Position numbers and translations under genes: made by a program. A DNA stretch of 64,000 nt from a virus, in the IMG/VR virus record IMGVR_UViG_3300032325_000464, positions 13,958-77,957 of that record, one strand, 5' to 3'. Positions 3,001-51,535 of the stretch are shown here, piece by piece. The stretch's first letter is position 1. Every line of letters begins with the position of its first letter. Under the pieces are notes generated by a model. The model saw only the letters and a list, made by a program, of their open reading frames with translations, was not told where the DNA came from and ran no database searches.

Positions 3001-6000
3001 CCTAGAGCTGCGGCAATTGACGCTGCTTGCTCTTGAGTAACAGCACCTTGCAAAACAGCATAAGAAAGCTGATTAGAAAAGTTTTCAGCAATTTCTTTGT
3101 TGCTTTGACCGTTACTGGTCATAGACTCTGCGTCTGCAAGCATGGACTTTCCAGCATCTGATTCTAGGAAATTTTGTCCGTAGTACCTCTTTTTTGCAGA
3201 CTCACCAGTTAGCTGATTATCTCTTGTTTTTATTGCTTCTTGACTAGAGGTAACTACACCGTTCAAGGAAGCAAACTCATCAAGTTTTTTATTAGTCATG
3301 GACATTGACTTGCCCAGCTTTATACCAGACTTAGTGGCCTCATCTGCTTGAATCTTAAAGTAAACCATAGCTCCGACAAATGATGCAAGGCCAGCCACAA
3401 TTAAGCCAATTGGGTTTGCGATCATTGGCAAAATCATTGATAGCATCATTAGTGGCATAGCTACCTGGCCAGCAATGTCGGCTCCTGGGCCACCAGACAT
3501 TCCATACATCATTGCGCCCATTCCAGCAACGCCACCAACTGCTCCAAGTTTTCCAGCCACTGCTCCTGAAGTTTTTTGCTTTGGCTCGGCCCCTGCGGCA
3601 GCAGCGTTATTTTTGTATCTAGCCTCTGCCTCTTCTTTAGAAATTTTTCCTTCGCCCTTGGCGCCTACAAAGTATTGTCTACCGTTCTTGTCGGTTTTTG
3701 TTTCTACACCGTTATCAAACTCTCTACCATTTTTACTAACAACTGTTGCGGTTCCACCATTGAGCAATGAAAGAGCTTTTCCAACTGTTGCAGAATTTCC
3801 AATAGCATTTCCAATAGAGGTGCCTAGAATCTTAGACCTTCCAAGAACCTGTCCAAGACCTTTTCCAATAATTTCTGCAGCACGGTCACTGAAGCCACCT
3901 CCACTAGAGTTTCCAGCTGCTCCAGCCCTACCCTTAAAGTATCCTGGGACGTTTCCAGAAATCATAGAACTAATTAATGGACTATACTTCTTTGTCATCT
4001 CAGCAGGGATTACCGCCTCTCCTGGAGACAGCATCGCTGGAATTACATCGCCAGCACCCTTTGGACCAGGAACGCTAACTACCCCGTCCTCAAATCCAAA
4101 TATCTTGGCCATAATTCCAGAACGCTGGCCACGCACTGGAATCTTTAATCCCTGTGCTTTTAGGGCTGCCCTGATAAGCGGAATAGCTTCTGGGTTTTTT
4201 GTAATAATTTTTGAAATTTCTCTTAGGTCAAATCCACCTGGAGTGTAAGTCTCTATATAAGGGATTCCTGGATTTGATGTATATGGCTGATTTCCCCACT
4301 TGTCTGGTGGACCAGACTTGTAGCTTGTTCCAAATTGGTGAGAAAGTGTTGACTTTAGATTACCAGAATCTCTACCAAAGTCTTTTGCACCGTAAAGATT
4401 TTGTAATTGTGGTGCGTATTTACCACTAAATCCTTGTGGAAACTTAAGGTACTGATTTAATATGTCATTACCATAAAATTTTGATCTTCGGCCAATAGAG
4501 CGTTTACCAATTAGAGATGTATCTCCGTACAGATCTAGATTACTATTTAGGGGATTAGTAACATCAAGGAACTGTTTACCAGTTAGTCTTCCAAACAACT
4601 TGGCAAGAATTTTAGCAGCTGGACTAACGGTTGCTGCGGCACCATATGTTGGCCTATCTAAAGAGTTGGCTCCATACGGAATTCCAAATACATCGCTCTC
4701 AAGCTTGCTTCTTTGCTGCTTCCCATACTTATTTTCTGATCCCCTACCAGCTGAAGATCTATTCTTTGTAAAATCTGCACCATATCCAGTATCAAAGGCA
4801 GTCTTGTACTTGGTGTCACCCTTGCCCAGCATTTCAGTAAGCATGTCGCTAGGCATTCTAGTAGAAACTCTAGATTTTTTGAGCAATTCAGATAGCAGTT
4901 TTGATTGAGTTGTTGACTTTGCTATACCACCAAAACGTGCTCGTACGCCAAATAGTTTTGCTATTAACCCAGCTTTTCCAGGTGTCACACTCTTCGATGT
5001 AGATCCAAGAATTTCAGACATGTTAAACGTTTGAGCACCCTTGGTAGCTTTTGCTGCTTGCTTAACAACTTCTTTTTTAAGCTCTGGAGTTTTTAGAGTT
5101 TTATTATTAGCATCTTTAATAATTTTTGAAACATCTTCTTTACTTCCATCACTAGCAGATAGTGACAACATAAGCTTTTTGGCTTCATCTTCTGGCAAGG
5201 TTTTAAACAGATTTTTAATTGCGTCTCTGTCAGCCTGAGATGCTTTAGTTTTCATAGAATTCTTTGTAGCCCAGGTATCGGCTATCTTTGCAAAGCTCAT
5301 TAACCTTTTTCTAGTCTCTGGAGATCTTAGCTGTTTCTGAGTATCTTGATATTTAATGTATGGGTTGGGAAGATTTGTTCTTCCTGACTTTTCAGACCCT
5401 GGAACTACTGGGCTAGTCTTGGCTCTGCCAAAAACATTTGCCTTTCTAATACTTTCCTTTTCGTCAAACTTTACAATCTTTTTCTCTGCCTCGTCTTGAG
5501 CCTTTACAAAAATGTCTTGCAACTGTCTTTCAGAAAGGGCTTTTGACTTAGAGTTTGAAATCATTGATCTAAAGGTTTTGTCCAAGTCCTCTAGGTATTT
5601 TGTAGTTGTTGAATCACTGACCTTTCCAACCATACCATTTTTAACAAGGTAATCCATGTTTGGAATTAGGCTGCCTCCAGAAAGTGCCTTTGTTTTTGAA
5701 AGCTCGTTAAGAATACTAGTGACATCTTTTACAGCTCTTTTATCTGTAAAAAATTGATTAAATGTTTTGGTCAGCATTCCAGCTGTTTGGCTATTTAGTC
5801 TAACTTCTTTAGATATTCTTGAAATTATTGACCTATCTACCATAGATTCTTTTATAATTCCTTGTTTAATCAAATCATCAATTTCAGCATTCATGATCTG
5901 CTTGGCCTTATTAGAACTTAAGACATCTGTTCCAGGAGACATGTGAGAAGCTTCTAACAAGAATTTTGCAGGAAATGATATAGATGGGTCTGCAACACTA

Positions 6001-8195
6001 TACTTAAGCTTTGCAGGCTTGCCGCTCTCATAACCAGGGACATTGCCGCTAATCATAGAGTTGATTAGTGGACCATATTTTTGAGCCATCTTTGTTGGAA
6101 TAACTGCTTCCCCTGGTGAAAGCATGGCTGGGACAACATCGCCAGCGCCCTTTGGACCAGGCACAGAAACAACTCCAGTTTTATACTTCTTAACATTTGG
6201 AGTCTTTGGTAAAGTTTTTCCTCCAGCCCCAAGTGGAACACCTAAAAGCTTTGATTGGGCGATAATGGCCCTACCATAAGCAGAAGCTAGATTATTTACA
6301 GCACCAGTTTCTGAAGTAAAAGTTTGAATAAGTTTTGCATGTTTTTGATCTAGTGAGGATGCGACTGCGGCTGCTTCAAGCTGTTGCTGAGTCAAATATT
6401 CTGTCTGAGAGCCAAGAGTGTTGGACTGTCCACCCAACCCAGAAAATACATTTCGAAGCCCTGCAAAAAGTTTTATAATGTTTGCTGCACCGTTAGCTAT
6501 TAGACCAAATGTCATTAGCAATATTGGACCAATTCCAGCAACAACAGTTGTTATAAGCACCGTAAACTGCTTAGCCCCATCGCTCATTTCATTAAACTTG
6601 TCTAAGAAGCCCTTTACAAATTCAACAATAGGAGTTACAGCCTTTAGGAATGCCTCTCCCAGTGGAACCAAAGAAACCCTTATGTCTTCAACAGCCTTTT
6701 TAAACTTATACATTGGTGAATCTTCAATGCGCTTTAGCTCTCGCTCAGATAGTATTGCAAGCTCTTCTGCTGTAGATGAAGATAGCTTTAAGACTCGCTC
6801 TGCCTGCGTACCCTCTTTTACAACGTTCTGAAATAGTGTTGATAGTCTTGAGAACTGAAACTTTCCAAATAGTTGCTCAATAGCTCTAGACCTATTTAGT
6901 GGGTCTAGTGTATTCAGGGCGTTAGCTAGCTCAATAACTGTGGCAGTTACATCTCCTGCATTAGAGTCTACAATTTGTTTAATATTTACACCCAGGCTAG
7001 CCAAAAACTTGCTAGTTTTTTCTGCTGGATTAATCATGGATGCAAGGCCAGACTTAAGTGCGTTTGCACCCTCAGAGGCGTTTATTCCACCTTCTCGCAT
7101 GGCAGTAAGGAAGAAGGTTAGGTCTTCGACGTCTCCTCCAAGCTGCTGAATAACTGGACCAGCTTTTGGAACTGCAATTGTCAGGTCTTCAATGGAGGTT
7201 ACAGTTTGGTTTTCAACTGCGTTAAGGAAGTTTATTTTACCAGTCAGGTCTTCTGCTGCAAGACCGAAGGCGTTGGTCAGAGATATTGTTGTTTGTAGAG
7301 CTTGGTCTTGTTCTACGCCACCAAGAACTGCAAGCCTTGTTGCCTGGCCTACCTGGGCCAACAGGTCTGCACCCATCTGTCCCATAGCTGCAGCGTCGGC
7401 TGCCATCTTCATTGTTTTTTCTACAGCAACGCCATATTTTGTAAACTCGTTTGCTAACTCTTTAATCTGAACGACCATCTTGTCTGTCTCAGAAGATGCT
7501 GTAAATGAGTCTCCATATACACGCTTAAATCTAATTGCCTGCTCTTCCATTTCCATGAAAGTTTTTGCCGCAATAGTTCCTATGTATGCAAGAGGAATAG
7601 AGAATCCAACCATAAGCTGGCGACCAGCCCACTGAGTATTTTTACCAAAATTTAGTAGGTTGGTAGATCCCTGTTTTACTAGTTGATTGAAGATCTGCTG
7701 TTTTTGAGCGGCCATCTCAGTTTTTGTAGCCAGGTTATTCATATCCAAAGCCAAAGGCCGCACTGCTATGGCTTGAAGAGATCCATTTGCATTACGGCCT
7801 AGCTTTGTGAACTGAGTTTGAATAGTCTTTACTCTTTCACGAGCAACCTTTTCAATTGTGTCAAATTCATTTCTAAAAAGTTTACCAAAAGTTTTACTGG
7901 CTCCGCCAGCATAGCGGAAATACTCACCTAGGCCAAGCTTATTTTTTTCTAGCCTATTTGTAAAATTTTCTGTAGTATTAGTTATATTTTTTACATTTGC
8001 AGCAAACTGACCAGTAGCATTTATATTATTTAATAGATTTCGCTGAACGTTTTCTGCAGCACGTGCTTGAGCTGCTCCACTTTTCAGTAGCTGCGCATTA
8101 AGGGAAGCAACCTGCCTTTGCAGATTCTTAATCTCTGCGATACCAATTTTGGTATCAACATTTATAATTATGTTTGACTGTATGTTTTCAGCCAT
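1..8195 (-). CDS. Tape measure protein, >2,730 aa, 3' end beyond window; internal repeat-flanked insert and C-terminal LysM
   Basis: ATG at 8195 (MAENIQSNIIINVDT...). It is absent from the ORF track, consistent with no in-frame stop before the window edge. Manual translation gives the tape-measure core (NFGKNTQWAGRQLMVGFSIPL...FKRVYGD). It follows the major tail and chaperone genes. The frame at position 113 still reads YTVKPGDTLSGIA. Confidence 0.92.
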   Translation of the reverse strand, partial: MAENIQSNIIINVDTKIGIAEIKNLQRQVASLNAQLLKSGAAQARAAENVQRNLLNNINATGQFAANVKNITNTTENFTNRLEKNKLGLGEYFRYAGGASKTFGKLFRNEFDTIEKVARERVKTIQTQFTKLGRNANGSLQAIAVRPLALDMNNLATKTEMAAQKQQIFNQLVKQGSTNLLNFGKNTQWAGRQLMVGFSIPLAYIGTIAAKTFMEMEEQAIRFKRVYGDSFTASSETDKMVVQIKELANEFTKYGVAVEKTMKMAADAAAMGQMGADLLAQVGQATRLAVLGGVEQDQALQTTISLTNAFGLAAEDLTGKINFLNAVENQTVTSIEDLTIAVPKAGPVIQQLGGDVEDLTFFLTAMREGGINASEGANALKSGLASMINPAEKTSKFLASLGVNIKQIVDSNAGDVTATVIELANALNTLDPLNRSRAIEQLFGKFQFSRLSTLFQNVVKEGTQAERVLKLSSSTAEELAILSERELKRIEDSPMYKFKKAVEDIRVSLVPLGEAFLKAVTPIVEFVKGFLDKFNEMSDGAKQFTVLITTVVAGIGPILLMTFGLIANGAANIIKLFAGLRNVFSGLGGQSNTLGSQTEYLTQQQLEAAAVASSLDQKHAKLIQTFTSETGAVNNLASAYGRAIIAQSKLLGVPLGAGGKTLPKTPNVKKYKTGVVSVPGPKGAGDVVPAMLSPGEAVIPTKMAQKYGPLINSMISGNVPGYESGKPAKLKYSVADPSISFPAKFLLEASHMSPGTDVLSSNKAKQIMNAEIDDLIKQGIIKESMVDRSIISRISKEVRLNSQTAGMLTKTFNQFFTDKRAVKDVTSILNELSKTKALSGGSLIPNMDYLVKNGMVGKVSDSTTTKYLEDLDKTFRSMISNSKSKALSERQLQDIFVKAQDEAEKKIVKFDEKESIRKANVFGRAKTSPVVPGSEKSGRTNLPNPYIKYQDTQKQLRSPETRKRLMSFAKIADTWATKNSMKTKASQADRDAIKNLFKTLPEDEAKKLMLSLSASDGSKEDVSKIIKDANNKTLKTPELKKEVVKQAAKATKGAQTFNMSEILGSTSKSVTPGKAGLIAKLFGVRARFGGIAKSTTQSKLLSELLKKSRVSTRMPSDMLTEMLGKGDTKYKTAFDTGYGADFTKNRSSAGRGSENKYGKQQRSKLESDVFGIPYGANSLDRPTYGAAATVSPAAKILAKLFGRLTGKQFLDVTNPLNSNLDLYGDTSLIGKRSIGRRSKFYGNDILNQYLKFPQGFSGKYAPQLQNLYGAKDFGRDSGNLKSTLSHQFGTSYKSGPPDKWGNQPYTSNPGIPYIETYTPGGFDLREISKIITKNPEAIPLIRAALKAQGLKIPVRGQRSGIMAKIFGFEDGVVSVPGPKGAGDVIPAMLSPGEAVIPAEMTKKYSPLISSMISGNVPGYFKGRAGAAGNSSGGGFSDRAAEIIGKGLGQVLGRSKILGTSIGNAIGNSATVGKALSLLNGGTATVVSKNGREFDNGVETKTDKNGRQYFVGAKGEGKISKEEAEARYKNNAAAAGAEPKQKTSGAVAGKLGAVGGVAGMGAMMYGMSGGPGADIAGQVAMPLMMLSMILPMIANPIGLIVAGLASFVGAMVYFKIQADEATKSGIKLGKSMSMTNKKLDEFASLNGVVTSSQEAIKTRDNQLTGESAKKRYYGQNFLESDAGKSMLADAESMTSNGQSNKEIAENFSNQLSYAVLQGAVTQEQAASIAAALGEKLQDYSISANIVGNLTALYGRNGENLLTDPLQIALKIQKDSSTEQLAAYENAVQAINENAANDWVADVGGALTSLSAGLFVASGAAAVTGIGAVAAPFIAAAGALTGLAGGGMLIGGELANEGDKQENNKARGLAVSLGVEQIAQNQGLLDSLNDRYNTEIKELELKKENAKTDKEKLEIEDKITQKIRDRSSAIASQKKANEEVFSELIKQAEAMGPAFNDSVGLAIDERFKDATGSLKLSATMAKEALAAIPTTGTDGKFNTFKATVQFGLASGEFSPMAALNLANAAAEDKTIETNFNLITSAQGTAEANQLLQLIGKAGVSSKNYGVILDYINKNPQTFKEDQEALAQIANMQAEYGIEIDLNVNGAKKLQDVSAFLQATGGLKGKPVTREIVTNYIANNPGMDPVQKANLQEMLSNWDVLTGGDNKVNYQVMVDYVIGKASDAAIWAYYISKNPALANATISVQTSLMPAARAQFFADGQENPNTKTNENPDPDEEDGGSKKTDVLDELLKKLQNVRRASVDVNGGIKELMSLLQSGKNFTGFSGIEQQLSLKGYSEEFIRFMADADKADQKRFMTIDKGVVKLKDSGKALQNLFAAVTLGNFERGIRESIGAINKELSARKTILSLTTMSYKEAAEAARDSGLAEAIAAIKSNTAIKDKNKAIKEAISLYKQEKAAVESARTMQEKFDDTYNAQMDLINAKEATIQVEFDIATDPFNDAVSSAQADIDKKVNQPGGLDDLQAGLQQITWQEDAINKTYDERLEALDKVEKANERIANSQKAQLGLAEALSRGDIAAAAKAAQEFRSLEAKESSQTQRDLIEKSRETELGGLSATVNGVKKTRKQIEDDILKIEKEIFLIEESRLEPAKESIRLATVARDIKLDALDDEKNKWDQLKISVDLAAASASTYLATLTAAQALATAAIAEQSAPKPLAPVAPVTPVKPVTTTTTVKPVVYTVKPGDTLSGIAGKNNTTVAKLLTANPKITNPNLIY

Positions 8196-13302: not shown

Positions 13303-14454
13303 TTATGAATCTGAGCTGTCTGAGTCAGCGAATGCAATTGCATCCTCTTCTTCCCACTGAACGCCGAATCTTACGAATACGGTGTACTCAATGGTGTCCT
13401 TCTTTGGCTTGTACTCACGGTTTACTGTGATGTCGCGCTGGAATCCCCAGATACGGTTCTGTGGGAATGTAAGGTCTACATATCCTGCAGGGAAATAAGG
13501 AACTTCCTGAACATCAACGCCTAGAACACGTGTTGTACGTGCTCCACCGAATGTCTGACCGACACCGTCAAGGTAGTCCTGACGGTTAGCCTGAGTTGAT
13601 CCTGGAGTCATTCCTGCGAATGCCTCAGCAACAGCGTCAGCTAGGGTACCATTGTGCTTAACAATGCCCTGGAATGCATCAGTACCTGCGTAGAACTTAA
13701 GGTTGTTCTTAAGTGCGCGGTACTTACGAGGCATAGCCAAGATAATGTTCTGCATAACATCTGGAGTCCAAGCGTTGTCAGTTACTGTAACAACTGACTC
13801 GTGTGCATCTCCAGTCTTTGCTCGGTTAACGAAACCCTGCAAGATAGATAGGAATGCATCTGAACCTGTACCAGTACCGTTGATCGCTAGATCTTCGATG
13901 TCATTAGCAAAAGCGTTTGTCATCAAACGTACTAGGTGGTCTTCAAGTGCACCTCCTTCAATTCCATCTTCAAGTGCTTCAGCAGTTACTTCCCAGTCAA
14001 GACGAATCTTCTTGGTAGTAAGCTCAACCTTTGTAAACTGAGCTCCTGCGTTAGAGTAGTCTCCAACAGCCTGTGTGGCCGCACGGATAACACGCTCTCC
14101 GACATTAACCTTCTCAAGTTCCATGGTGTTGGCTCGCATTGTTACTCTGCGTCCATCCTTGGCGAGAACTGTGGCATCCCACACGTAGTCAATAAAACGA
14201 CGTGCTTGCTCTGGGCGTAGGATACCTGAACCTGCATCACCTGAAGGGTTAATAGCATTAGCCCCATTAGTATTGCCAAGGTAGGCATTGTCAATGTTTC
14301 CAAGAACACCAGCTGTGGTGTAGTTTCCTGGAATGTTCTGGCCAGCCTCTGACCCAGACGCAAATGATCCCTGGCCCTGATATAGACCTGGAGTAGTTCC
14401 GCCTAGCTCACCAGCCTCGCCTGGCTGATTTTTAATAATTTCTTGTTCCGACAT
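13303..14454 (-). CDS. Major capsid protein (HK97 fold)
   Basis: GILRPEQARRFIDY...KKIRLDWEVTAEALEDGIEG...FANDIEDLAINGTG; follows portal and protease; GGAGGTG SD favours ATG 14454. Confidence 0.9.
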   Translation of the reverse strand: MSEQEIIKNQPGEAGELGGTTPGLYQGQGSFASGSEAGQNIPGNYTTAGVLGNIDNAYLGNTNGANAINPSGDAGSGILRPEQARRFIDYVWDATVLAKDGRRVTMRANTMELEKVNVGERVIRAATQAVGDYSNAGAQFTKVELTTKKIRLDWEVTAEALEDGIEGGALEDHLVRLMTNAFANDIEDLAINGTGTGSDAFLSILQGFVNRAKTGDAHESVVTVTDNAWTPDVMQNIILAMPRKYRALKNNLKFYAGTDAFQGIVKHNGTLADAVAEAFAGMTPGSTQANRQDYLDGVGQTFGGARTTRVLGVDVQEVPYFPAGYVDLTFPQNRIWGFQRDITVNREYKPKKDTIEYTVFVRFGVQWEEEDAIAFADSDSSDS

Positions 14455-39654: not shown

Positions 39655-40212
39655 TTGCTTACGCAATTCACCACACTTGACTAGGTCGTGTCCCTTGTTC
39701 CATTGCTTACGGTCAAGGTAATAACTCAGAACAGTAGTCTGTTCGTATTCGCAATTTGAACACTTAGTTTTTCTCCACATTGTTGTTGTTGTCATTAGTT
39801 ATTTTCCTTTTCTGTTAGTGCGATTGTTAGTGAGGTGATACCGCTAATGGCTTGGTCAAATTCTTCCCAAGTGTCGAATGTTAGGACTACCATTTTCTAA
39901 TTGACCCCTTTGCTTTTGCTAATGATGTGAGCATTGACAATTCACGCTCAAACTCTGATGTGATGTTCCAATCACTATCTTCTGCTATCTTGAGATAAGC
40001 CTCTAGAGTTTTCTCTAGTTGGGCTAATGACATCTTCATAAAATCTGATGAAGTAGCGTATCTGTTCATACTAATTACACTCTCCATAAGCCTCGAAGCA
40101 GTATTCGCAACATTCCTGCTGGAATTCTTCTACATACACTCTTGGAGTGTAGTTGTCGCAGATTTCACACATTGCTACATCTGCTACATTTATCTTTAGT
40201 AAGTTCATCATT
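39655..40212 (-). other. Leftward unit of 3-4 tiny ORFs (two CxxC-containing; includes 39887-40087)
   Basis: GAAAGGA SDs, own promoter at 40241-40262; e.g. MNLLKINVADVAMCEICDNY...CCEYC. Confidence 0.55.
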
Positions 40213-40620
40213 CTGAACTCCTTTCTTTCTAACTACTTATACACTATCACCACCTACCGACATTTATGCTCATTTTACTAAACATTTTTATACAAACTTT
40301 TGCCCTCTTTTTTGTAGGGTATCTACAAGAACGACACGCCCGAGTGAGCGCGGGCCTGTGGATAACTATGTGTATAACTCTTTATAAGAACGTTATAAAA
40401 AACCCCCTAATTCCTGGCGTGTCGCTTGACAAATGTCGTAGGCCTATGATAGATTTTTACTAACAACAAAAGAAAAGGATAATCAAATGACAGTAGAAGT
40501 AATGTTTCACGATGGTTCAGCAATCTACCCTAGCTATGACCCAGAACACCGCAAAACTATTTTAGAATTCTACGCTAACCTTTTTGATAAGGGTGAAATT
40601 ATGTCTTGGAAGGTAATCTA

Positions 40621-40794
40621 ATGATGAGTCGCAAAGACTATGAGGCAATTGCCGAAATAATCAAAACATACAATCTACAACTTCCAGAAATTACTTTGGA
40701 AAGTATTGTGAATGACTTTTGTGAAATGCTAACAGAAGATAACCCACGGTTTGACGCTAACCGTTTTCGTGTTGCTGCTATGGAGGTAAACTAA
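40621..40794 (+). CDS. Small phage protein (SRKDYEAIA...DNPRFD..RF)
   Basis: ORF track with revised start; motif typical of small early phage proteins. Confidence 0.65.
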   Translation: MMSRKDYEAIAEIIKTYNLQLPEITLESIVNDFCEMLTEDNPRFDANRFRVAAMEVN

Positions 40795-41756
40795 TGATGT
40801 TTTACAACGGATTCAATCTAATGATTGACCTAATACTAATTGCTGTTGTGTATGTAATTGCTCACGGCATTGGATACCGCAAAAATAAAACACCATTCTA
40901 ACGGCGTGTTGATTTGACAGATCCCTCGAAAGAGGGCGCGGGCCTGTGGATAACCCTGTGAACAACTCCGTTATGAACTTGTTATGAAACACCCCAAAAG
41001 TATGCCAGAAATGTCAGTGGTTTGTGATAGGGTTTTTAGTAAGCCAAAAGAAAGGAATACCAAATGGATAAGATGTGTGTTTACTGCGAGAGTGTTTTCA
41101 CTAACGATACTATTGTTTGCCACAACTGTAATGAGTATGACGGAATGATGCCGTTGGAAAAAGCGGTTGACTATCTCAACCTTGACCCTAATGACTTTTA
41201 CTAAAATGTCAGACCCCTATACTAAGTTTATAGTAATCAGAAAGGATAACAGATGAAGCAATCAGTAATCACAGACACCACCATAAGCACTATTGTTGCT
41301 AAGGCAGAAGATGTCATTGACAGACCTCTAACCTACATGGAGAACGCACTTATAGAGTATGTAGTTGACCAGATTCGTTTAGGGTTGGTAGAGAAATGAC
41401 AATCGAAGAACTAGAAACTTTGATTTACCAAATTGACCTAATGCTAACTGAAAGTGTTAGCCAACTATTCACAACACCAGAGGAGAAATAAATGGAACTA
41501 GGTTTGATTCTTATTTTTATTGCTGTTGGCGTTTCAATTTTTGTTGGAACTTCGGTTGCCACAATTTTATTTTTGCTACAAGAAAATAACAGACTTGGCG
41601 AAGAGCTAGAAAAAAACGAAACCCCATTCTAAACGACACGCCCGAGAGGGCGCGGCCCATCGCAGGATAATAAATAACCTTAAGAATATTTTAAGATCTC
41701 CCCCAAAATGTCCTAGGTTAGTGATAAGATAATCTTATTAACGAAAGGAAACCCCA

Positions 41757-42278
41757 ATGACTAACCATGTAGAGATTTATTCAGAGATTGCAAGTCGTGC
41801 AACATTCGGCCAGGTAGAGCAGGCAACTAAGTGGTACCTTGACGCAGAGACAGTAGCACGTGAAGTTGCAGCCAACCTAGGCGTGACACTTGAAGTAGGT
41901 GCAACTATTGTTTCAGCATTCAGCCCTCGTGAGCGCTGGGCACGTAATGTTTCTAATGCTATCAAGTTTTCACTAGGCGAACATGTTACCGCTCTAGGCA
42001 ATAACATTCGCATGGCTAACGCTGCATTTGACTTAGGCTTCAAGGCTTTGAATGGTCAGAAGACTAATGCATTTGCTAAGGCTATTGCAGGCAATGAAGA
42101 ATCAGTTGTGATTGACGTATGGATGTTGCGAGCAGTTGGTATTGAGAAGAAGACACCTAACCAGTCTGGCTATAACGAACTTGCTAAAGCAGTGACTACT
42201 GTTGCAGTTAAGCATGGCATGACACCACGTGCAATGCAAGCCCTAATCTGGATTGTTGTTAGAGGAAGTGGAGAGTGA
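41757..42278 (+). CDS. Helical DNA-glycosylase-like phage protein (DUF7178-like)
   Basis: WY...SAFSPRERWARN...GQKTNAF...VVIDVWM...QALIW pattern; own promoter and GAAAGGA SD. Confidence 0.6.
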   Translation: MTNHVEIYSEIASRATFGQVEQATKWYLDAETVAREVAANLGVTLEVGATIVSAFSPRERWARNVSNAIKFSLGEHVTALGNNIRMANAAFDLGFKALNGQKTNAFAKAIAGNEESVVIDVWMLRAVGIEKKTPNQSGYNELAKAVTTVAVKHGMTPRAMQALIWIVVRGSGE

Positions 42279-42569
42279 TTGACAACAAAACCCTAGTATG
42301 GGATAATGGTAAGTAGTGGAGTATTATATTTGGTTGCCAGTATTTGTTTTGTTGTTTTTACTTTTGCTTTTTGCCCTGCTTCCAATTTTTGTTGGCATAA
42401 TTTTCTTTCTAGAATATTTGGCAGAAATATTTAGCAAAATAAAAAGCTGACAGACACTCACCGATCTGGAGGGCGCGGCACTTTTTCTATCAGAAGTCAA
42501 TTACGTTATGCATTAAAAATCTCCTAGAATATCCCCCAAAATGTCTGATGGTCATGCTAAGATAAATCT

Positions 42570-42725
42570 ATGAAGCTAGGAAAAGGTAATGAGGCAAGAC
42601 GTAAGGCAGAAAGCCAAGCGCTATTCTTTACTATGCTCAAAGCCCCTCACCTAGTAGCAACCCCCAAGAAATACAAAGGAAGCCGTCAGTCTAACAAGGC
42701 TAAGGCAATAAAGGAAAGTGAATAA
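42570..42725 (+). CDS. 51-aa basic protein (leaderless)
   Basis: ATG 6 nt after TAAGAT; MKLGKGNEARRKAESQ...KKYKGSRQSNKAKAIKESE. Confidence 0.6.
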   Translation: MKLGKGNEARRKAESQALFFTMLKAPHLVATPKKYKGSRQSNKAKAIKESE

Positions 42726-42864
42726 TGTACAGTTATATCTGTCAGGATTGTAATCGCTTTATCAACGGAGTTGAGACAATTTACTCCTATGCCCTCAAAA
42801 ATGTCTGTGGCAGATGTTATGCTATTCAGGCAGGACACCCCTCAACAAGAAAGCTGGTAAAGTA

Positions 42865-43059
42865 ATGCCAAAGTATAATGTAGCAGTTCAGTTATCAGGT
42901 AATGATGGAAACGCATTCTCAGTAATGGGAGCCGTAAAGTCTGCCCTCAAAAAAGCTGGAGCAAGTAGAGAAGAACTTGACGAATACGTATCAGACTCAA
43001 TGTCTGGCGACTATGACAACTTATTGCGTGTAGCAATGGAATGGGTAAAGGTAAAGTAA
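42865..43059 (+). CDS. Small phage protein (DGNAF motif family)
   Basis: LSGNDGNAFSVMG.V..AL..AG...MSGDYDNLL. Confidence 0.7.
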   Translation: MPKYNVAVQLSGNDGNAFSVMGAVKSALKKAGASREELDEYVSDSMSGDYDNLLRVAMEWVKVK

Positions 43060-43340
43060 TGGGAATGATGACAGCAATGGACTTGGCAGGTAGCGAAGTC
43101 TCATTAGAGCAACAACTATCAATTCACTTTAGTAGCAACTGTTATCCACCAATTCCACAACAGATGATTCCAACAGCTATTGCAGCGATTGACGCTTGTT
43201 GGGAAGAAGACTATGACTTGATGATACCGTTGCCAGATGGAGTATCTTTCAGAGGACAGACTGAAGTGTCTGCTAGAAATGTTGTTGAGTCTTACAGGCT
43301 TGACGCCTGGTTGGTTGATTACTACGAAGATGAAGAGTAG
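43059..43340 (+). CDS. Small acidic phage protein
   Basis: H..SNCYPP.P...I.LPDG motif; TAATG coupling. Confidence 0.65.
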   Translation: MGMMTAMDLAGSEVSLEQQLSIHFSSNCYPPIPQQMIPTAIAAIDACWEEDYDLMIPLPDGVSFRGQTEVSARNVVESYRLDAWLVDYYEDEE

Positions 43341-43550
43341 CTAACGCTGCCCCAGAAATGGGGCGCGGCCCAGGATCAGTCAAAAGTCAAACCGACACGC
43401 CCTTAAGAAGATAACAATTTATTCCCCAAATCGTTATAATTATTTTGCCTTTGGGGGTAGATAAATGTCGGTGGTTAGTGGTAAAATAAACCTATCAACA
43501 AAAGTTGGTAATAAAAACAAAACAGTCCCTCTGGGGCGGAACGGAAGCAA

Positions 43551-43703
43551 ATGTCAAACGCAACTCTAACTGTTGGCTCACAGTTCACCACTCTAAAGTC
43601 TGGAGTATCAGGCACAATTCAGGAAATCGTAAACAACAAGAACGGCACTCAGCGTGTTCGCCTTGATGTAAACGGACAGCCACGCTGGACTACTGTAAAG
43701 TAA
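43551..43703 (+). CDS. 50-aa beta-rich protein
   Basis: Manual translation MSNATLTVGSQFTTLKSGVSGTIQEIVNNKNGTQRVRLDVNGQPRWTTVK; GGAAG SD. Confidence 0.65.
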   Translation: MSNATLTVGSQFTTLKSGVSGTIQEIVNNKNGTQRVRLDVNGQPRWTTVK

Positions 43704-43851
43704 TAAACTAATTATTGTTGTGGCGTTAGACTACATAAAAGGGTGAATCAGAGTCTAGTTGAGAACCCCTGCCACTAACAATAAATGTCAGACCCTAATG
43801 ATAAAATAATGAAGTAAACAAAACCCCACAAGTAAAGGAAGCAATAAAATT

Positions 43852-44301
43852 ATGGCTAGAACTATGTCAGTAAAAATCCCTGTATCCGCACTAATCTCAG
43901 ACATTGAGAAGTCTATTGCCAAGATTGACGAAGCAATTACAAACTACGCATCAGACCGAAAGAAGTATGAGGTAGATGTTGCCGCATACAAAGAAAGTGT
44001 TGCTGAGTTTGTTTCTAATTTCATTAGCAAGAACGCATCAAGCATTGGCTATGACTACGAAAGTCTAATCCGTATCAACCACGCTTACAATGGCAAGGTA
44101 GAGTTGATACTTGACAAGGACTCCATTGAGGGTTTCCCTGAGAAGCCAGAAGAGCCAAGCAAGCCAAATGAGAAAGAGTGGTTTGGTCGTGAACACCAGA
44201 CACGCAAACAAATCCTAGAGCGTAATCTCAAGGTGCTGCGTATGACTACACAGGAAGAAGTTTCTGCTAGTTCATACTCCTCAGTAATGGAACTAATCTA
44301 A
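43852..44301 (+). CDS. Hypothetical coiled-coil protein
   Basis: 149-aa ORF with own promoter and AAAGGA SD. Confidence 0.75.
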   Translation: MARTMSVKIPVSALISDIEKSIAKIDEAITNYASDRKKYEVDVAAYKESVAEFVSNFISKNASSIGYDYESLIRINHAYNGKVELILDKDSIEGFPEKPEEPSKPNEKEWFGREHQTRKQILERNLKVLRMTTQEEVSASSYSSVMELI

Positions 44302-44549
44302 ATAATCAAACAACCTGAGCAAGTTGTAAAACTGCTTCCCGAATTGGGGTAGCGACTAGACGGGTAAAATAATTTCGCTCCACATCCCCCTCACAAAAGC
44401 TGAAGATCGCAAGATCACAAATACTGAGAGGGGGAAAAGGTGGGCGCGGCCCCCATAACGAATTGGTAACAAGTTTAAGAAACACTATTAAGAGCCCTTG
44501 TAAATGTCAGTGGTTGGCTGTAAAATATAGCTATAACGAAAGGAACCCC

Positions 44550-45352
44550 ATGGACGAGCAAGCAGAAGAAATCAAACAGGACCTAGCCGACTACTATGCT
44601 AACCCACAAGAATACACACTCTTTGACTTTGAGGAAATCTTTCAGGACAGGGACCCATTTGAATTCCTATAATGTCGTAGGGTCCTGGTAGAATTCAAAC
44701 AAATAACGAAAGGAAAATAATGAGCTTACTAAATAACATTGGATACGTTTCCTATGACGGAAACTATGGAGCTGAAGCGGACCTACTAGTTTTCGACAGC
44801 AATGACCTCACTCTACAACAGTGGGAAACCCTAGGTGAGATAAACGACAACTCTAGGTATGAGTATGTTGAAGCTATTTTTGCAGGTAAAGACCTATCTG
44901 AGTGGGAGGGCTAATGCTACGTACAGATGAGACTTACTGGAAAATCAAAGAGTACACAGATGAGGCCAAGGGTATAGCTTGGGACACATGTCACAAAATT
45001 TATATTCTTATGGATGACAATCAGGTAGCGCTAATGCGTGAGTATGAATATGACCCAATCATCACGTCAGAACAAATAAACCCAGCCGAAATGGCAACGG
45101 TTGCAGCTGTTTGGTTTGAAAAGTCTTGTGCACTAAGATTTGTAAATGCAGTCTACAGTGATACTTCAATTGGACACGAGGGTTTTGTCAACGTCATTGC
45201 GCAGTTTGAAGGCGATGAAGAAGAAGACGATGAATATGATGAGGATGAAGATGAGTAATATTTGGGAGCCAGCTCCAGGTGGAGTCTGGGATAGCTTCTT
45301 CCGTGAAGCAGGCTTTGACAATGGAGATAGCGAAGACGACGAAGACCTGTAG
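44550..45352 (+). other. Unit of small acidic ORFs (44550-44672, 44720-44914, 44914-45258 and a short terminal ORF)
   Basis: ORF track, GAAAGGA SDs, promoters at 44505 and 44673. Confidence 0.65.
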
Positions 45353-45544
45353 TGCATTCCCTTACTTCCTTTCTGGAATGTACTACCGTCCTGGCCATGA
45401 CGTAAATCTGGCCACCTTTTGTGCGCGGCCCACTTAACAGATCCATAACAACTTTAAGAAGAATTAAGATGTTTCCCTAAAACCCCTTGTAAATGTCGGT
45501 GGGTAGCTGTAAAATGATACTACCCGAAAAGAAAGGAACCCCCA

Positions 45545-46048
45545 ATGGGAACCAGAAACCTAACAGTAGTAAAGAATAAAGCAGGGAAAAACAAGATTGC
45601 TCAATACGGACAATGGGACGGCTACCCAAGTTATTCAGGTGTTCAAGCCCTAGCATTTCTAAGAGACGAAGGCAACCAAGCCCTGCTACAAGCAAAGCTA
45701 GACCTTGTCCAGTTTGTTGGTGATGAGGAAGTAGATACCCTGTATAAGCAGTATGAAACTACCGATTGGGAGAATAAAGATTTCCTAAACGCATACCCTG
45801 GACTTCACAGAGATACTGGTGTTGGTATCCTATCAGTAGTTGCTAACGCTGTTGCTCCTGTCAAGACTGTTGATAACACAGAGTTTGCTAAAGATGAATT
45901 GTTTTGTGAAGGTATCTTTGAGGTAGACTTCAAGACTAACAAGTTTATTACTGTCTATGCTGACAAGAAGGTTGAGTTTGACCTTGCCACTCTACCAACA
46001 GATGAAGAATACCTAGCCCAGTGGGAAGTGCAGCAAGTTGCTTCATAA
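45545..46048 (+). CDS. Uncharacterised phage protein (MGTR...QWDGYP family)
   Basis: MGTRNL...AQYGQWDGYP motif; own promoter and SD. Confidence 0.75.
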   Translation: MGTRNLTVVKNKAGKNKIAQYGQWDGYPSYSGVQALAFLRDEGNQALLQAKLDLVQFVGDEEVDTLYKQYETTDWENKDFLNAYPGLHRDTGVGILSVVANAVAPVKTVDNTEFAKDELFCEGIFEVDFKTNKFITVYADKKVEFDLATLPTDEEYLAQWEVQQVAS

Positions 46049-46462
46049 TCTAGATACCAAATACCTAACAGGGGACATCGCAAAGGATGTTCAGTTTATA
46101 AAAGATAACCTTAGTATTGATGACGAAGAGTTCTTTAGAAGGGCTATGGCTAACATAATGTCTGAGGGTAATGCTAGAATTGACTTACTTACTGGAGAGG
46201 AACTAAACAAACTATGAAGAAAACTTGGCAAGTAGAGTATAGTGCTACCTATTGGGTAGAAGCAGAAACAGAAGATGAAGCAATTGAATTGGCTATTGAA
46301 TCACACGCTGACCTACCAGACGGTAGTTGGGAAGCAATGATTGACCCCTATGATAGCAACAACTTCAATACGCTAGGAGAAAAGTGATTATCGAATGCCC
46401 CAACCATGAGGGCAACTTTGACTGTACACCATTTTGCAATTTGTGTGAAGGAGAACAAGAGT

Positions 46463-46645
46463 ATGTCAGTGAGTGAACTAGAACAAATCGGGTATGAAGA
46501 AGGAATGAAGGATACCTATGCTTACATTATCAATACTATACGTAAGGCAATAGAGAATCCTTCACTTGATGTCATACCGTCAAAAATGGCACTACAAGTC
46601 CTGTTGGCAAGTTTAGAAGCTGACAGGGAAGAGAGCACGGTCTAA
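46463..46645 (+). CDS. Small hypothetical protein
   Basis: AAGGAG SD; GYEEG motif. Confidence 0.55.
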   Translation: MSVSELEQIGYEEGMKDTYAYIINTIRKAIENPSLDVIPSKMALQVLLASLEADREESTV

Positions 46646-46795
46646 GCTCCCCGAAAGGGGCGCGGCCCCAATATAACAGATCTATAACAACTTTAAGAAC
46701 CTTAAGAATGTTTCCCCAGATGGCTTGACATTGTCGGTGGGTCATGGGATAATAGTCTTACTAAACATTCACCCCTAAAAGAAAGTTGAACACAA

Positions 46796-47809
46796 ATGGC
46801 TCATGACCTAGAATCCGCAAACGGCCAGACTGCTTTTGCTTCATTGCGACAGCCAGCTTGGCATGGTCTTGGAACTGTTTTCCAAGACGAGGTAGACACA
46901 TCAGAAATGTTGTCTCTGGCTCACCTAAACGATTGGAACGTCCGTCTTGAAGATGTAGAGACTCCAGAGGGTTTCAACAGCGACAAGTCTTATTCATTCG
47001 TGACAAGAACTAACCCATTCGACAGAAACACTAACGACATTCTTGGTGTTGTTGGTGAACGCTATGTCCCTCTTCAGAATGAGGACTTATTTTCATTCGG
47101 AGACAACCTGCTAGACGGCGGAGGTCGTTGGGAAACTGCTGGCTCTATCAAGGGTGGGCGTGTTGTCTTTGGCTCTATCGCATTGGATAACTCAATTACC
47201 CTAGACCCAAATGGCATTGCTGATAAGATTGATAACTATCTTCTAATCAACACTAGCCACGACGGCTCTATTGCGATTCAGGCTTCTATCACACCTGTTC
47301 GTGTTGTTTGTGCCAACACTCTAAACCTTGCTCTATCTTCATTCAAGGGCAAGAAAGATGTCAAGCAAACTTTCAAGATTCGCCACACACAGACTGCCGA
47401 AGGTAAAATTGCGGTTGCTCGTGAGGCTCTTGGACTTGCTCACAAATACATTGACGAGTTCTCAACTATGGCTAACGAAATGATTCAGACTGAAATTACT
47501 AAGGCTCAGTTTGATAAGATTGTTGAACTTGCCTACCCTGCCCCTGCTAAGGACGCCAAGGGTTCACAGAAAAAGTATGACAGCAAAATTGATTTGCTTC
47601 AGTCTATTTATGTTGGCGATTTCAATAACACCATTAGCGGAACTGCTTGGGGTGCTTTCAATGCTCTAACCGAAAGACTAGACTGGTATCGCAATTCCCG
47701 AGGCGGAAAGAACGAAAGCATTCTTGCTTCTGCTTCTGGCTTTGACCCAATGATAAACGCTGAGAAGAATCGTTTGATGAAAGTTGTTCGCCAAGCCGTA
47801 ATGGCATAA
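46796..47809 (+). CDS. DUF932 / TIGR03299-family phage-plasmid protein
   Basis: MAHDLE...PAWHGLG...YVPLQNE...WETAGSIKGG...SHDGS...RVVCANTL...RHT...TAWGAFNALTE. Confidence 0.85.
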   Translation: MAHDLESANGQTAFASLRQPAWHGLGTVFQDEVDTSEMLSLAHLNDWNVRLEDVETPEGFNSDKSYSFVTRTNPFDRNTNDILGVVGERYVPLQNEDLFSFGDNLLDGGGRWETAGSIKGGRVVFGSIALDNSITLDPNGIADKIDNYLLINTSHDGSIAIQASITPVRVVCANTLNLALSSFKGKKDVKQTFKIRHTQTAEGKIAVAREALGLAHKYIDEFSTMANEMIQTEITKAQFDKIVELAYPAPAKDAKGSQKKYDSKIDLLQSIYVGDFNNTISGTAWGAFNALTERLDWYRNSRGGKNESILASASGFDPMINAEKNRLMKVVRQAVMA

Positions 47810-47952
47810 GCGACACGCAGACCTCCTGGCTTGACAGCTGGGAGGATCTGTGGCGCGGCCCCCTTATCACTAATAAGATATTAACTTATAAAAAACCTAT
47901 TAAGAAGTCCTTGACTTTTTCCCCAAAACGTGAGAGAATATATTTATCAAAC

Positions 47953-50414
47953 CATTCAACCCTAGGAGATAAATGCCTTATTTCAAAGTACAAAGAGAAT
48001 ATACTAACTGGGAACAGATTACAGTTGAAGCTGATTCAAAAGAGCATGCAGAAGAGCTTGCAGAAGATGATGAGATATGGGATAATGCCTATGATGTAAA
48101 CTCATATAACTACACTGGAGATACATGGGTAGGAGAAGCAGATGAGTAAAAAGCACACGCATTACTATACTTATGGAGCCTGCACATGGTGCGGTAAGAA
48201 AATAAATAAAGGATTGGGCGTAGACCTATACAAGGGAAAGAGAGTCTAATGCAGATTTATGCTGACAAGAAGCCTAGCGTAAAAGATACTACTTGGACCA
48301 GGATCTATCACTACAACACCGTCCAGGTTATGGAGTCCGATCGCTACTACGACTTTTATAAGTTAGTTATTGATGGCCAGAGACCTAAGTATTTCTTTGG
48401 TGAGGCAGCGTGGATGGATTGCCAGAGAGCAGCTGTTGACAAAGTAGGCCTTTCAGGCTATAATATATTTAGAAGATAACCCTAAAAGAAAGAACCCCAA
48501 ATGCACGTATTACAATACATAGCAGTACAATCAGATGACCAAGACATGGCCTTTCGTACAGTCAAAGACACATTAGAATCAGAGCTGGGTGGTATTGAAT
48601 CTACGACTAACTCTTGGTTTGATTGGTTTGTAGCAGGTGGTGGTAGATTTGTAGAGGGCGACCCATATAAAGAATCTACTAATAATATAATCTCATATGA
48701 TGAAGACCCTAAGACGTTTCTCAAACAGGTTGAGGTTTCTATTGAATCTCGTATGGATGAGTTCAGGGCCTATCGCAAACAGTTTGAGGAAAAGAATGTT
48801 GACCTCAATGATAAGTTAGATAACTATAAAGGTATCATGAACTATGATTTTGAGCTGTACCCTTTGAAAAAGATGATTGATATGATTCAGGGTACATGGG
48901 ATTTCAATTCCTACTTCTATGACATGCACCACGCCAGTACTAACCCTGAACACATGTATAAGTCTATTGACACAGGCAACAAGAACTGGTATGCTGTACC
49001 TGTAGACTTTCACTTCTAAGGAGACCAAATGACTAACTATGTATCACTAACTTGGAAAGAATGGCAAGAGCGCTTCAAGCCTATCAAGAATCATTTTGCT
49101 AAGAACGACCCAGACCTAGAGATGTTTGAGACTTATGGCGAAGAGGTAGATTTTGTTATCTCTAAAGCCGAGGAAAATAAAGTTTGGACTTGGGGAGATG
49201 GAGACTTTGCTAGCTACATTAGCAATGGCTATCACTATGTAAATAGGATTGGCTATTATGTTTGTGAGGTTCCTTATGACGAGGATACCGAATACGAAAT
49301 AATCATAAGTACCGAAGAAGAGTGTAAGTGCTATCTTGAAGACGGCTATGACGACGGAGAGTATGGACGCTCAGACTGTGAAGAATGTGAGGGTAGTGGG
49401 TATGTCACAAGATACAATGATTAGAAACAAGAACAAGGATAAGACTGAGATTATCTATGACCTGAACATCTATCAGCTGGAGGACCTAGACGCCGATGGT
49501 GAGTATCGACACATGGGGCCATGGTACATTCATGTCTACGAATACGACGGTAGAACAACTGAGGAAGTTACAGCTCCTATAGAATTAACTGAAGATGAGT
49601 ATAACAGTCTTATTAGGGATGATTCATACTATGATGAGCTAGACGTCTGGTATGGCCTGCAAGGGTTTATCTTTGAAAAGTGGGATGTGCTCAGCGATCG
49701 TCTTAAGTATGCATTCGAATGCCTGCCCAAGTACAAGGAAGATGTTTTGTTCTAACCCTTGTGTTATCCCCCCATTTTTGATACAATAGAAGATTGTAAG
49801 TGAGTAGGAGTTATGCCTAGAAAAGAATCAGTAGAGCAGAAAATAGTAGCAAAAGTGTCCAACCTGATAAATGATTTGACCGTGGACTTAGAGCAGACAG
49901 GTATTTACTTTGGAAGAACAAATGGAACGACCTATCGTAGACTAATGACTATTGCCGAATCAGCAAAGTATGAGAGAGAAGAAGAAAAAGATGACTACAC
50001 CTATTGAGAATAAAACAGCAATCCTTGCGGACTTGTTTCTGAACTATCGAGATGACGAGGAGTTCACAGATTTTATTTCTTATAATGACATTGGACTTCC
50101 AGTAGCCTATGCGATTGATAATCAGATAGTAAAGGGAACTGAGATGTCTGACCAGTTTATCAATGAAACCTTTGAGTTGCTAATTGGGGCTTTGGGGATT
50201 GAGGACATTGGGTTTGAAACTTTAGATGAAATGTTTACCGAAGCACAATAACTAGATAATTTAAATAGGAGACAGCGTGGGTAGTTATAAAGGATACATC
50301 ACTTATAGATATCAGATCGAGGCAGACAGTCTTGAAGAGGCCTATGAAAAGATGTACACTGGTCAAGGCGAAGAGGTTGACTATGCCTCTGACGTACAAG
50401 AAGACGACGAGTAA
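47953..50414 (+). other. Run of small hypothetical genes (48249-48479, 48501-49019, 49029-49424, 49417-49755, 49813-50007, 49991-50251 and shorter ORFs)
   Basis: ORF track; tightly packed, acidic. 48501-49019 has WFDWFVAGGGRF...PVDFHF; 49029-49424 ends in CEECEGSG. Confidence 0.7.
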
Positions 50415-50779
50415 ATAATTAATAATTCCTAGTCCAGCGAAAGCTGGGCGCGGCCATCTATTTATCCTATTAGTCATAGCAATTTACGAAAAGACATTAA
50501 GAACCCTAAAAAAAATTTCCCAGAAACTTGACAATAAGGTTCATATGAGCTACAATTATATTACAAAATTAAAAAAGGTTTGGCAGGTTGAGTTTTGCTC
50601 CCTGTCATATAGTGATAGCACAACGGTCTAAGGGGTTGGACTGGCTATCACGAATAGGGGGAAGTTAGTATTTTTATAGATATTGGCTTCCCCCTTATTA
50701 TTTAATATAATGTTGAAATCTATTTATCAATACTATTACGATAGAATATATATTTTCCAAATCGAGGTATAATATATAT

Positions 50780-50992
50780 ATGAGCCCACGTAACTTTGAT
50801 AAAATAAGTAAGACACCTTTACCTCAAGAAACATTAGATCAGCTAAAGCCAGGTATGAACCTATGGTATGCCTTTACTACTATTACTGGTATAGATAAGA
50901 TCTTCTCATATACCCCAGATGAAATCAATACTAATCCTGTTAAGGATTCGCAAAGCGGTACAGATCAATCTGATATTAATTATTACTTTTAA
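50780..50992 (+). CDS. Small hypothetical protein (leaderless)
   Basis: GGTATAAT-6nt-ATG. Confidence 0.5.
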   Translation: MSPRNFDKISKTPLPQETLDQLKPGMNLWYAFTTITGIDKIFSYTPDEINTNPVKDSQSGTDQSDINYYF

Positions 50993-51535
50993 TCCCTAGT
51001 ATATATAACACCCCTAGTAGAAATACATAGGGGTTTTTAGCTATCTGAAATATGTGGATAAAACATATATGTTTCAATAAAAAAGATATGTGTTTATTTA
51101 AATAACATTACGATATGGCCATATTTTTCCCAGAAAGTTATACAAAAAATACTTGACATTTGGCCCTATGTGTGCTAGGAGATATTCTGCTATTGGATAT
51201 ATGGACAGAAGATTATGCGGAAAAACCATTACGTTTACGAAGATTATGCGTTCCATTATCCATAGTTTATTTCCTATTATATCTCTACAACATATCCCTA
51301 TATAATCAGTAAGATCTTTTAGCTAGATATCATCCATAAACATCATCTATAAAGCCCTGTGGGGCTTGTAGAAAGGTTTAAAAGCTGGGGGTATACATAT
51401 TATCGGTAAGGGCTTATATGTCGGATATGGGGATATCCAGCAAGCACTTTATCCTATTTCTTGAGTGTTATTAATGAGCCTAGGAGGGTTATTACTATCA
51501 TCCAAACCATCACGTTATCTAACATAGGGTATTCT

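Follow-up and report, generated by a model that had tools for sequence, protein, structure and literature searches.

A short GC-rich word, apparently specific to each phage lineage, at the cassette joints of an actinobacteriophage early-gene array

An array of small cassettes, each behind a GC-rich word

The DNA analysed here is a stretch of 64,000 nucleotides (the window, WIN) covering bases 13958-77957 of the IMG/VR virus record IMGVR_UViG_3300032325_000464, a record of 77,957 bp rated 69% complete. Between positions 40348 and 50455 it carries a series of small-gene cassettes, and at the head of each stands a short GC-rich sequence with the core GCGCGG, referred to below as the word; its ten copies are labelled c1 to c10, while labels beginning with L and G designate related loci and whole records, respectively. 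One of the cargo genes encodes a DUF932-like protein (phrog_1221, 46796-47809, plus strand), another a DUF7178 protein (phrog_3842, 41757-42278, plus strand) and a third a three-helix protein of 64 amino acids (49813-50007, plus strand), which is found in 35 of 40 arrays; for most cargo genes there is no family assignment, and the host-takeover or anti-defence role that was suggested initially for the cargo is a putative one. The minus strand encodes the portal, prohead protease, capsid and tail proteins at 8-37 kb, and two very long open reading frames (ORFs) of ~2,834 and 1,490 amino acids belong to the structural arm (the record upstream of the window and window positions 1-8195, minus strand). 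Among cultured phages, the nearest relatives belong to the Streptomyces phages of cluster BE (Stanwilliamsviridae), with 47% identity for the portal and 55% for the DUF932-like protein, and a megablast search of the array against cultured phages gave no match. The array is the early-gene array of a siphophage of actinobacteria with a genome of ~110 kb, a distant relative of the Streptomyces BE-cluster phages.

The core GCGCGG occurs 12 times in the window, compared with 3.2 ± 1.9 expected matches, and none of 100 shuffles reached 12. Ten of these copies form the array, all on the plus strand and exactly where a preliminary description of this DNA had placed ten co-oriented elements; the other two, at 13715 (+) and 35413 (-), are the sporadic outside copies that it had also noticed, and extending the count to the whole record adds none. 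Runs of at least nine consecutive G or C number 14 in the record, ten of which are the array words. The fuller consensus in the array is (G)GGCGCGGCC(C), the form compared with the closest relative below is GCGCGGCC, and across joints the word measures 8-11 letters. The first copy, c1 (40348-40356), is the variant GCGCGGGCC, which is also the word sequence of c2 (40934-40944, GGGCGCGGGCC), and c3 (41648-41658), c4 (42471-42479, GGGCGCGGC), c5 (43360-43371), c6 (44442-44454), c7 (45423-45431), c8 (46657-46669), c9 (47852-47863) and c10 (50446-50455) follow. The distance from word to word grows along the direction of transcription (588, 714, 823, 890, 1081, 979, 1237, 1193 and 2595 nt), and G001 has a similar trend, with short cassettes first.

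Read from the sequence, each word comes after a stop codon and a hairpin and before a promoter, a ribosome site and a start codon, and the complete unit, from 5' to 3', consists of stop codon, hairpin, word, boxes, promoter, ribosome site and one to several small genes, in line with the self-contained units proposed initially. The ten spacers align with a mean column identity of 41%. Nothing but the 6-9 nt of the word is invariant, the boxes between word and promoter (ATAAC, TTAAGA/TTACGA and CCCCAAA) being loosely conserved; among the ATAAC boxes of c1 and c2 is the perfect DnaA-box-like sequence TGTGGATAAC.

A promoter is predicted after each word, with its -35 or -26 element 54-95 nt downstream. 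These class-1 promoters, all on the plus strand, lie at 40426-40455, 41012-41033, 41709-41730, 42542-42563 and 43466-43487 (after c1 to c5) and at 44498-44526, 45487-45515, 46725-46753, 47911-47939 and 50528-50556 (after c6 to c10). A host sigma-70-type promoter, with a -10 and either a -35 or a PafBC-type -26, is thus predicted at all ten joints; most match the PafBC geometry TGTCNN-N10-TANNNT, and some have TTGACA just upstream. The consensus of this actinobacterial activator is tGTCgg(N10)tA(N3)T (PMC8635444). On the plus strand, 12 PafBC-type matches fall within 40434-46180 (~6 kb), compared with ~9 per strand expected in the whole 78 kb, and one on the minus strand (40241-40262), at the array's head, is the point of divergence. 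The cassette promoters fit the consensus of PafBC-dependent promoters of Mycobacterium and other actinobacteria, a likeness that concerns the promoter and not the word, and the phage may, with this predicted dependence, co-opt the activator that serves as a single-stranded-DNA alarm in the host. WhiB is encoded by all four complete metagenomic relatives (4/4), and together with the PafBC-type promoters it indicates an actinobacterial host.

Compact class-2 promoters of the type AAATGTCAGACCC..TAnnnT are found inside cassettes, at 41207-41228, 43786-43807 and 44673-44694 (plus strand), and have no word; since they lack it, the word is tied one-to-one to the long spacers. A further wordless promoter, TTGACA-17-GATAAT, lies within a cassette at 42279-42307 (plus strand).

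Hairpins are present at nine of the ten copies. The five GNRA hairpins without U-tract that had been described were all found as written, at c2 (CCCTC-GAAA-GAGGG, 40923-40936), c3 (41639-41652, pairing a GACACGCCCGA box with the word), c5 (43349-43364, its 3' arm entering the word), c8 (CCCC-GAAA-GGGG, 46649-46660) and c10 (CCAGC-GAAA-GCTGG, 50434-50447). Longer hairpins occur at c6 (44386-44434, with an outer stem that runs into the word), c7 (45393-45413, 9 nt upstream of it) and c9 (47822-47845, with CTTGACA in the loop); at c1 the word itself is paired, and upstream of c4 there is no more than a weak stem. The RNA-fold z-scores are clearly negative for c1 (-1.8), c5 (-2.3), c6 (-3.1) and c9 (-4.0), marginal for c10 (-1.5) and near 0 for the remaining copies, being significant for about half of the copies. 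No T-tract follows the word at any of the ten copies and a terminator scan flagged none of the ten sites, the hairpins running on into GC-rich sequence and not into the T/U tract of an intrinsic terminator. A permissive Rfam search of 38-53 kb returned two chance-level matches only.

A different word in each related phage

With the DUF932-like protein as query, 39 related loci were retrieved, and none of them contains GCGCGG on either strand; in each relative, the corresponding joints combine a hairpin with another GC-rich word. The ORF caller over-calls in spacers, and the intergenic placement of the words is claimed for the window, not for the relatives. In a whole-record scan of seven records, the top GC-rich 8-mer was a private word confined to one block of 8-11 kb in six of them, and none was seen in G006. 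The closest relative, L007, has GGGCGGCC, one letter from GCGCGGCC at its copies. GGCCGACC (core GCCGACC) is found in eight loci and its complement GGTCGGCC in L028; GGTGCGCC in L017, L020 and L024 and its complement GGCGCACC in L033 and the corresponding record G007 (8 copies in G007); GGTCGGGC in G001, with 16 copies within 3.6-14.4 kb of 92.9 kb; and GGCGAGCC in G002 and G003, with 8 copies each. The others are GGTCGACC (L035 and L036), GGTGCCCC (L027), GAGCGCCC (L014-L016 and L029), GGCCTAGGCC (L022) and GCACCGATGC (L042). Most of the words are quasi-palindromic 8-mers of the form GG-NNNN-CC, connected by single-letter steps, and GGTCGACC and GGCCTAGGCC are perfect or quasi palindromes. 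Judged from these sequences, the word consensus is specific to the phage lineage and graded between lineages. The repertoire is also shared at a distance, as GCCGACC is common to eight loci that include the G004 and G005 genomes, with a median protein identity of only ~54%.

At orthologous joints of WIN and L033 the flanks are kept at 85-95% identity and only the 8-10 bp of the word are swapped, and at four joints of L021, L022 and L042 the words differ within surroundings that are 90-95% identical. For an ungapped footprint of orthologous joints the pairs were too few. Some joints have an inverted word between flanks of unchanged orientation, and in the divergent blocks of G002 and G003 the words stand on opposite strands, following the direction of transcription. 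These observations bear on the suggestion that the motif is a Chi- or KOPS-like polar signal. It is indeed a short GC-rich word with a strand bias within the array, but it is confined to 10 kb of 78 kb, is exclusively intergenic, differs between close relatives, is quasi-palindromic and turns with transcription in divergent blocks. This alternative from the preliminary description did not survive the comparison, and we regard a Chi- or KOPS-like role as barely conceivable for a word that is private to each phage. T5-type nick sites have the sequence 5'-GCGC, and a nick-site reading was considered; the presence of words on both strands in divergent blocks speaks against it.

The same feature is found in cultured Streptomyces phages, where the word is TGTCGGGCCCGGACA in Samisti12 and Daubenski, GGCGCCCGGCGCC in Coruscant (13 copies) and GCCGCCCCGGC in LukeCage (14 copies); no description of it was found in the accessible literature on these phages. 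In Samisti12, 26 of 28 matches (with at most two mismatches) lie inside the two terminal repeats of 10,666 bp. Coruscant has a rigid module in which a TTCG hairpin and its T-run are followed by the word, another palindrome, a -35 element exactly 23 nt after the word, and a -10 element, and the whole module of ~100 bp is homogenised between joints; in LukeCage the distance from word to promoter is 7-23 nt. The physical ends of Samisti12 and Coruscant do not contain the word, and a packaging or end-forming role was dropped for this reason. The terminal repeats of Coruscant (L098), Daubenski (L099) and LukeCage (L100) encode small ParB-N-like (GHHR motif) and Lsr2-like proteins; tblastn searches with the Dps-like 'DNA binding protein', the small ParB-like proteins and Lsr2 of the Streptomyces phages gave no match in the records of 13 uncultured relatives.

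The Coruscant layout, with a canonical hairpin and T-run ahead of the word, places the word on the promoter side and makes it unneeded for termination. The possibility raised initially that the elements are plain terminators is not supported by this layout. A broader RNA-level role would make the word the shared 3' arm or tail of the early transcripts, read by a lineage-specific RNA-binding factor and serving factor-dependent termination, processing or stabilisation of the 3' end. In its favour, stable hairpins with GNRA or UUCG tetraloops enter the word, which provides the 3' arm in c1, c5, c6, c8 and c9, there is no T-tract in the window, and the word is co-oriented with the genes. However, the words are quasi-palindromic and are inverted in joints with kept flanks, which argues for recognition of double-stranded DNA rather than RNA; furthermore, Coruscant has complete hairpin-plus-T-run terminators upstream of the word, half of the copies fold no better than shuffles, and no Rfam family matches. 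An RNA-level signal therefore appears quite improbable.

A second regularity concerns the surroundings of the word, counted over 150 site-orientations. The sequence TTGACW ends 13-16 nt upstream of the word (mode 15) in 43 of them and WGTCAA starts 14-16 nt downstream in 47, while 18 have both arms, the full element there being a pseudo-dyad of ~50 bp centred on the word; in many relatives the arms are TTGACA and TGTCAA, each at 15 nt from it. In the window the arms occur upstream only at c2 (TTGACA at 40914-40919, 16 nt ahead of GCGCGG) and c9, and downstream at c4 and c5. The upstream arm could mean that the word replaces a -10 element, as TTGACA, 15 nt and the 8-mer would put it at -14 to -7. 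The promoter would then either belong to the middle class and be recognised by a divergent sigma-like or appropriator factor of the phage, or it would be disabled and serve to park the host RNA polymerase. The 43 arms at this distance, and the location of the word upstream of each cassette and in the same orientation as the genes, would suit such a role, and phage polymerases of the T7 group are known to have promoter words that differ between lineages. Against it, the arm is present at only ~30% of the words and, within the window, at only two or three of the ten; a mirror image of it also occurs on the downstream side; Sigma70_r2 was absent from the six genomes (four complete) that were scanned for protein families; and in Coruscant a terminator occupies the would-be -35 position. 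We therefore consider this promoter-like role very unlikely, slightly more so than the RNA-level one.

The DUF932-like gene of the Streptomyces BE phages is located, with ~20 further small genes, in a direct terminal repeat of ~11 kb, and the homologous array of Samisti12, with its word, falls within the 10,666-bp repeat. In the probable source run, exact-match contigs at 41.4-51.3 kb have a depth of 21.6-29.2, and the flanking contigs have depths of 12.8 and 9.2; contig depth is not a copy number, and the approximately twofold value fits a terminal repeat of ~10.2 kb. From contig depth and homology with Samisti12, the probable direct terminal repeat extends from 41150 to 51335, with approximate bounds, so that the array probably lies in the long terminal repeat of the phage; c1 and c2 would fall just outside it, if these bounds hold. 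That the motif is lineage-specific, quasi-palindromic and probably located in a terminal repeat had been overlooked in the preliminary description.

Cassette exchange and possible recognition of the word

Cassette order, gain and loss differ between relatives, and the rearrangements coincide with the word. Synteny between WIN and L033 breaks within ±3 nt of c6, and in L033 the DUF932 cassette stands ahead of two cassettes that precede it in the window. Among contigs of co-occurring relatives, one joins 40348 to 40943, word to word, while others join 44444 to 45487 or place the DUF932 cassette ahead of cassette 7, and of ~220 alignments between genomes only 11 run across a word with 30 nt to either side. 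The shuffling proposed from the single sequence was thus borne out by alignment of the relatives, in which reordering breaks fall at the word. The word would act as the point of cassette exchange because it is the sole sequence common to all joints.

The breakpoints at the word and the ~50 bp pseudo-dyad around an 8-bp core could also suggest an integron-like or lox-like site for site-specific recombination, with the word as the crossover core. However, Phage_integrase (PF00589), Resolvase and Y1_Tnp were absent from the same six genomes, while control genomes were positive for PF00589, so that an integron-like mechanism lacks its enzyme, be it a tyrosine or serine recombinase or an HUH protein, and the initial remark that no recombinase was recognised extends to these six genomes. 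In addition, each cassette has its own promoter, the 15-nt segments that adjoin the core are not conserved, and contig joints that appear to 'go back' are explained by relatives with another cassette order. Integron-like mechanics, as first envisaged, is not supported, given these points and the lack of attC anatomy, and a dedicated recombination site is in our view highly improbable.

We propose, with a probability of roughly 45%, that the word is a lineage-private recognition site in double-stranded DNA at the cassette boundary, read by a putative, probably phage-encoded factor. This tentative reading is preferred because of the word swaps that preserve the flanks, the small repertoire of words used in both orientations, their quasi-palindromy, the geometry of the arms and the layout in Coruscant. 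The putative sequence-specific factor would dock on the word and thereby insulate, silence or time the early cassettes, by analogy with the stoperators of cluster A mycobacteriophages or with an early-shut-off operator. The word would at the same time be the crossover point at which cassettes are exchanged, lost and reordered, as at the promoter/stem-loop (PeSL) linkers of T4-type phages, shuffling being a consequence.

Several points weigh against a dedicated reader of the word. Clustering of 3,418 ORFs from 40 arrays revealed no conserved array protein that covaries with it, the best association being a cargo protein of 76 amino acids that is present at only 12 loci and is explained by local relatedness; nothing stood out either in a residual-identity scan over 13 genomes, many of them incomplete, and ParB_N, like Sigma70_r2, was absent from the six scanned genomes. 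The word is the 3' arm of a hairpin in c1, c5, c6, c8 and c9, which would fit a role in RNA or single-stranded DNA as well. The spacing between word and promoter is not constant (54-95 nt here, 7-23 nt in LukeCage), which is unusual for a classical operator or activator site, the virus record is only 69% complete, and a joint change of 8-16 sites together with their reader is evolutionarily demanding. A further search, among 15 conserved families, found no class-specific alignment columns beyond single positions. The 64-residue array protein was tried as a candidate reader and rejected, as L019 and L020 share it and have different words; its AlphaFold model (pLDDT 86, three helices) gave no match in the PDB.

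The words could also be kept uniform with no dedicated reader. As in a PeSL-type linker, the word would then be a GC-rich clamp at the foot of a terminator, and its uniformity would result from frequent short-homology recombination or template switching between joints, that is concerted evolution, with shuffling as the effect. PeSLs are defined as recombining, conserved promoter-plus-stem-loop linkers (PMC2839356), and here too the cassette order varies with breaks at the word, the ~100 bp module of Coruscant is homogenised as in PeSLs, and a reader gene was not found in the covariation scans of the arrays and of the 13 genomes. On the other hand, the module of the window has a mean column identity of 41% with the word alone invariant, and the orthologous joints would require conversion tracts of 8-10 bp with untouched flanks. 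Drift plus homogenisation also predicts something other than a few words that recur in very divergent genomes and in both orientations, and the constant 15 nt between the word and the TTGACA arms suggest a complex with a definite shape. We thus hold this explanation to be unlikely, though far from negligible.

If the word is indeed a recognition site, it may be asked what such a pair of site and reader would achieve. One speculative answer, which we find doubtful, is that they form a fast-switching lock-and-key pair that gives each lineage of these apparently virulent terminal-repeat phages, whose freshwater group has no isolate, private control of its first-expressed genes. This would be an immunity-type specificity outside lysogeny, with a scheduled shut-off of the phage's own early cassettes; it could include the silencing of, or escape from, co-infecting relatives that have the same or a different word, and the same site would determine where cassettes from a common early-gene pool are swapped. 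Should the word be a private recognition site, the regulator-site pair, of a kind so far undescribed, would shift its specificity by single letters across 8-16 sites and offer a natural system for the joint evolution of DNA recognition and its targets, and it would provide exact swap points for putative early host-takeover or counter-defence genes, explaining their trade within a large, mostly uncultured group of phages of actinobacteria. As the word feature is present in the cultured phages Coruscant, Samisti12 and LukeCage, these ideas can be tested at the bench now.

Relation to known systems and further features of the joints

The architecture resembles the SPO1/T5 modules, the linkers resemble PeSLs and the word resembles a stoperator, and by defining features the array is a member of none of them. 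PeSL cassettes are known from the T4-type phages RB49/phi1, T4/PST and KVP40/nt-1 (PMC2839356, PMC4122927). As in these, a composite of a hairpin, here a putative terminator, and a host-type early promoter recurs between small orphan genes, the linker is the place where relatives differ by insertion, deletion or reordering, and no dedicated recombinase is known, so that the PeSL analogy drawn initially was a fair one in functional terms. In contrast to PeSLs, conservation of a ~100 bp linker within the genome is missing here (41%), while it is seen in Coruscant; the invariant part is a short, lineage-private word that switches between close relatives; the hairpin precedes this word and is not part of the promoter; and the phage family, the host phylum and, probably, the location in a terminal repeat are different. 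Mini-circles are a PeSL feature; here the 'go back' joints of the contigs fit relatives with another gene order.

Stoperators, such as those of the cluster A mycobacteriophages L5 (repressor gp71) and Bxb1 (PMC6550527, PMC9283540), are intergenic, are oriented with transcription and have a consensus that differs between phage groups and tracks the repressor (PMC6550527). The word is likewise a short site that is repeated in the intergenic gaps of an actinobacteriophage, mostly oriented with transcription (10/10 on the gene strand here), with a graded, group-specific consensus. However, stoperators are asymmetric 13-bp sites, 20-30 per genome and genome-wide, in temperate phages with a known repressor, whereas here 8-16 quasi-palindromic 8-13-mers lie in one early block, the six genomes searched have no integrase, and no protein of the arrays or of the 13 genomes covaries with the word as the stoperator repressor does. 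Coruscant is predicted to be virulent.

The terminal-repeat host-takeover modules of SPO1 and T5 span ~10-13 kb, with some 20-26 small early genes in several operons with strong promoters, and lie inside a long direct terminal repeat. The window similarly has numerous small early genes, grouped into several operons with promoters of their own, probably in a terminal repeat, whereas a lineage-private junction word is not described in the accessible SPO1 or T5 literature. Integron attC arrays share the co-oriented cassettes and a structured element at each boundary; they differ in having an integrase, which is lacking in the six genomes, and a common Pc promoter, where each cassette has its own promoter here, and no attC-like imperfect palindrome with a GTTRRRY core is found in the window.

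Some further features of the joints were observed. Pairs of DnaA-box-like 10-mers (TGTGGATAAC) directly adjoin the word at 40357-40379, where c1 is followed by TGTGGATAAC/TGTGTATAAC, and at 40945-40967, with the first 10-mer after c2 at 40945-40954; such pairs are also present in L007, L008, L020, L027, L032, L035, L037 and L042. They lie downstream of the word in some joints and are mirrored upstream in others, as are the GACACGCC boxes, and the joints are built of mirrored box pairs around the word. Before c6, a segment of 56 nt (44340-44395) in the 3' untranslated part is missing from the contigs of all four runs compared, and its core, GGGGTAGCGACTAGACGGGTAAAATAATTTCGCT, is seen again ahead of joints in L024 and L025; the segment could represent a small insertion element or else a structured RNA. 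At the end of the array (50528-50695), a near-consensus promoter, TTGACA-17-TACAAT, is followed ~100 nt on by a hairpin-plus-T-run terminator (50656-50695), the only canonical one of the region, with no evident ORF between the two and no Rfam match; this unit may be a small RNA. Finally, GATC is sparse in the array (1.25 per kb at 40200-50600, compared with 2.95 per kb in the whole window), and nine of its 13 copies there are found no more than 45 nt from a word, in a zone making up 9% of the region.

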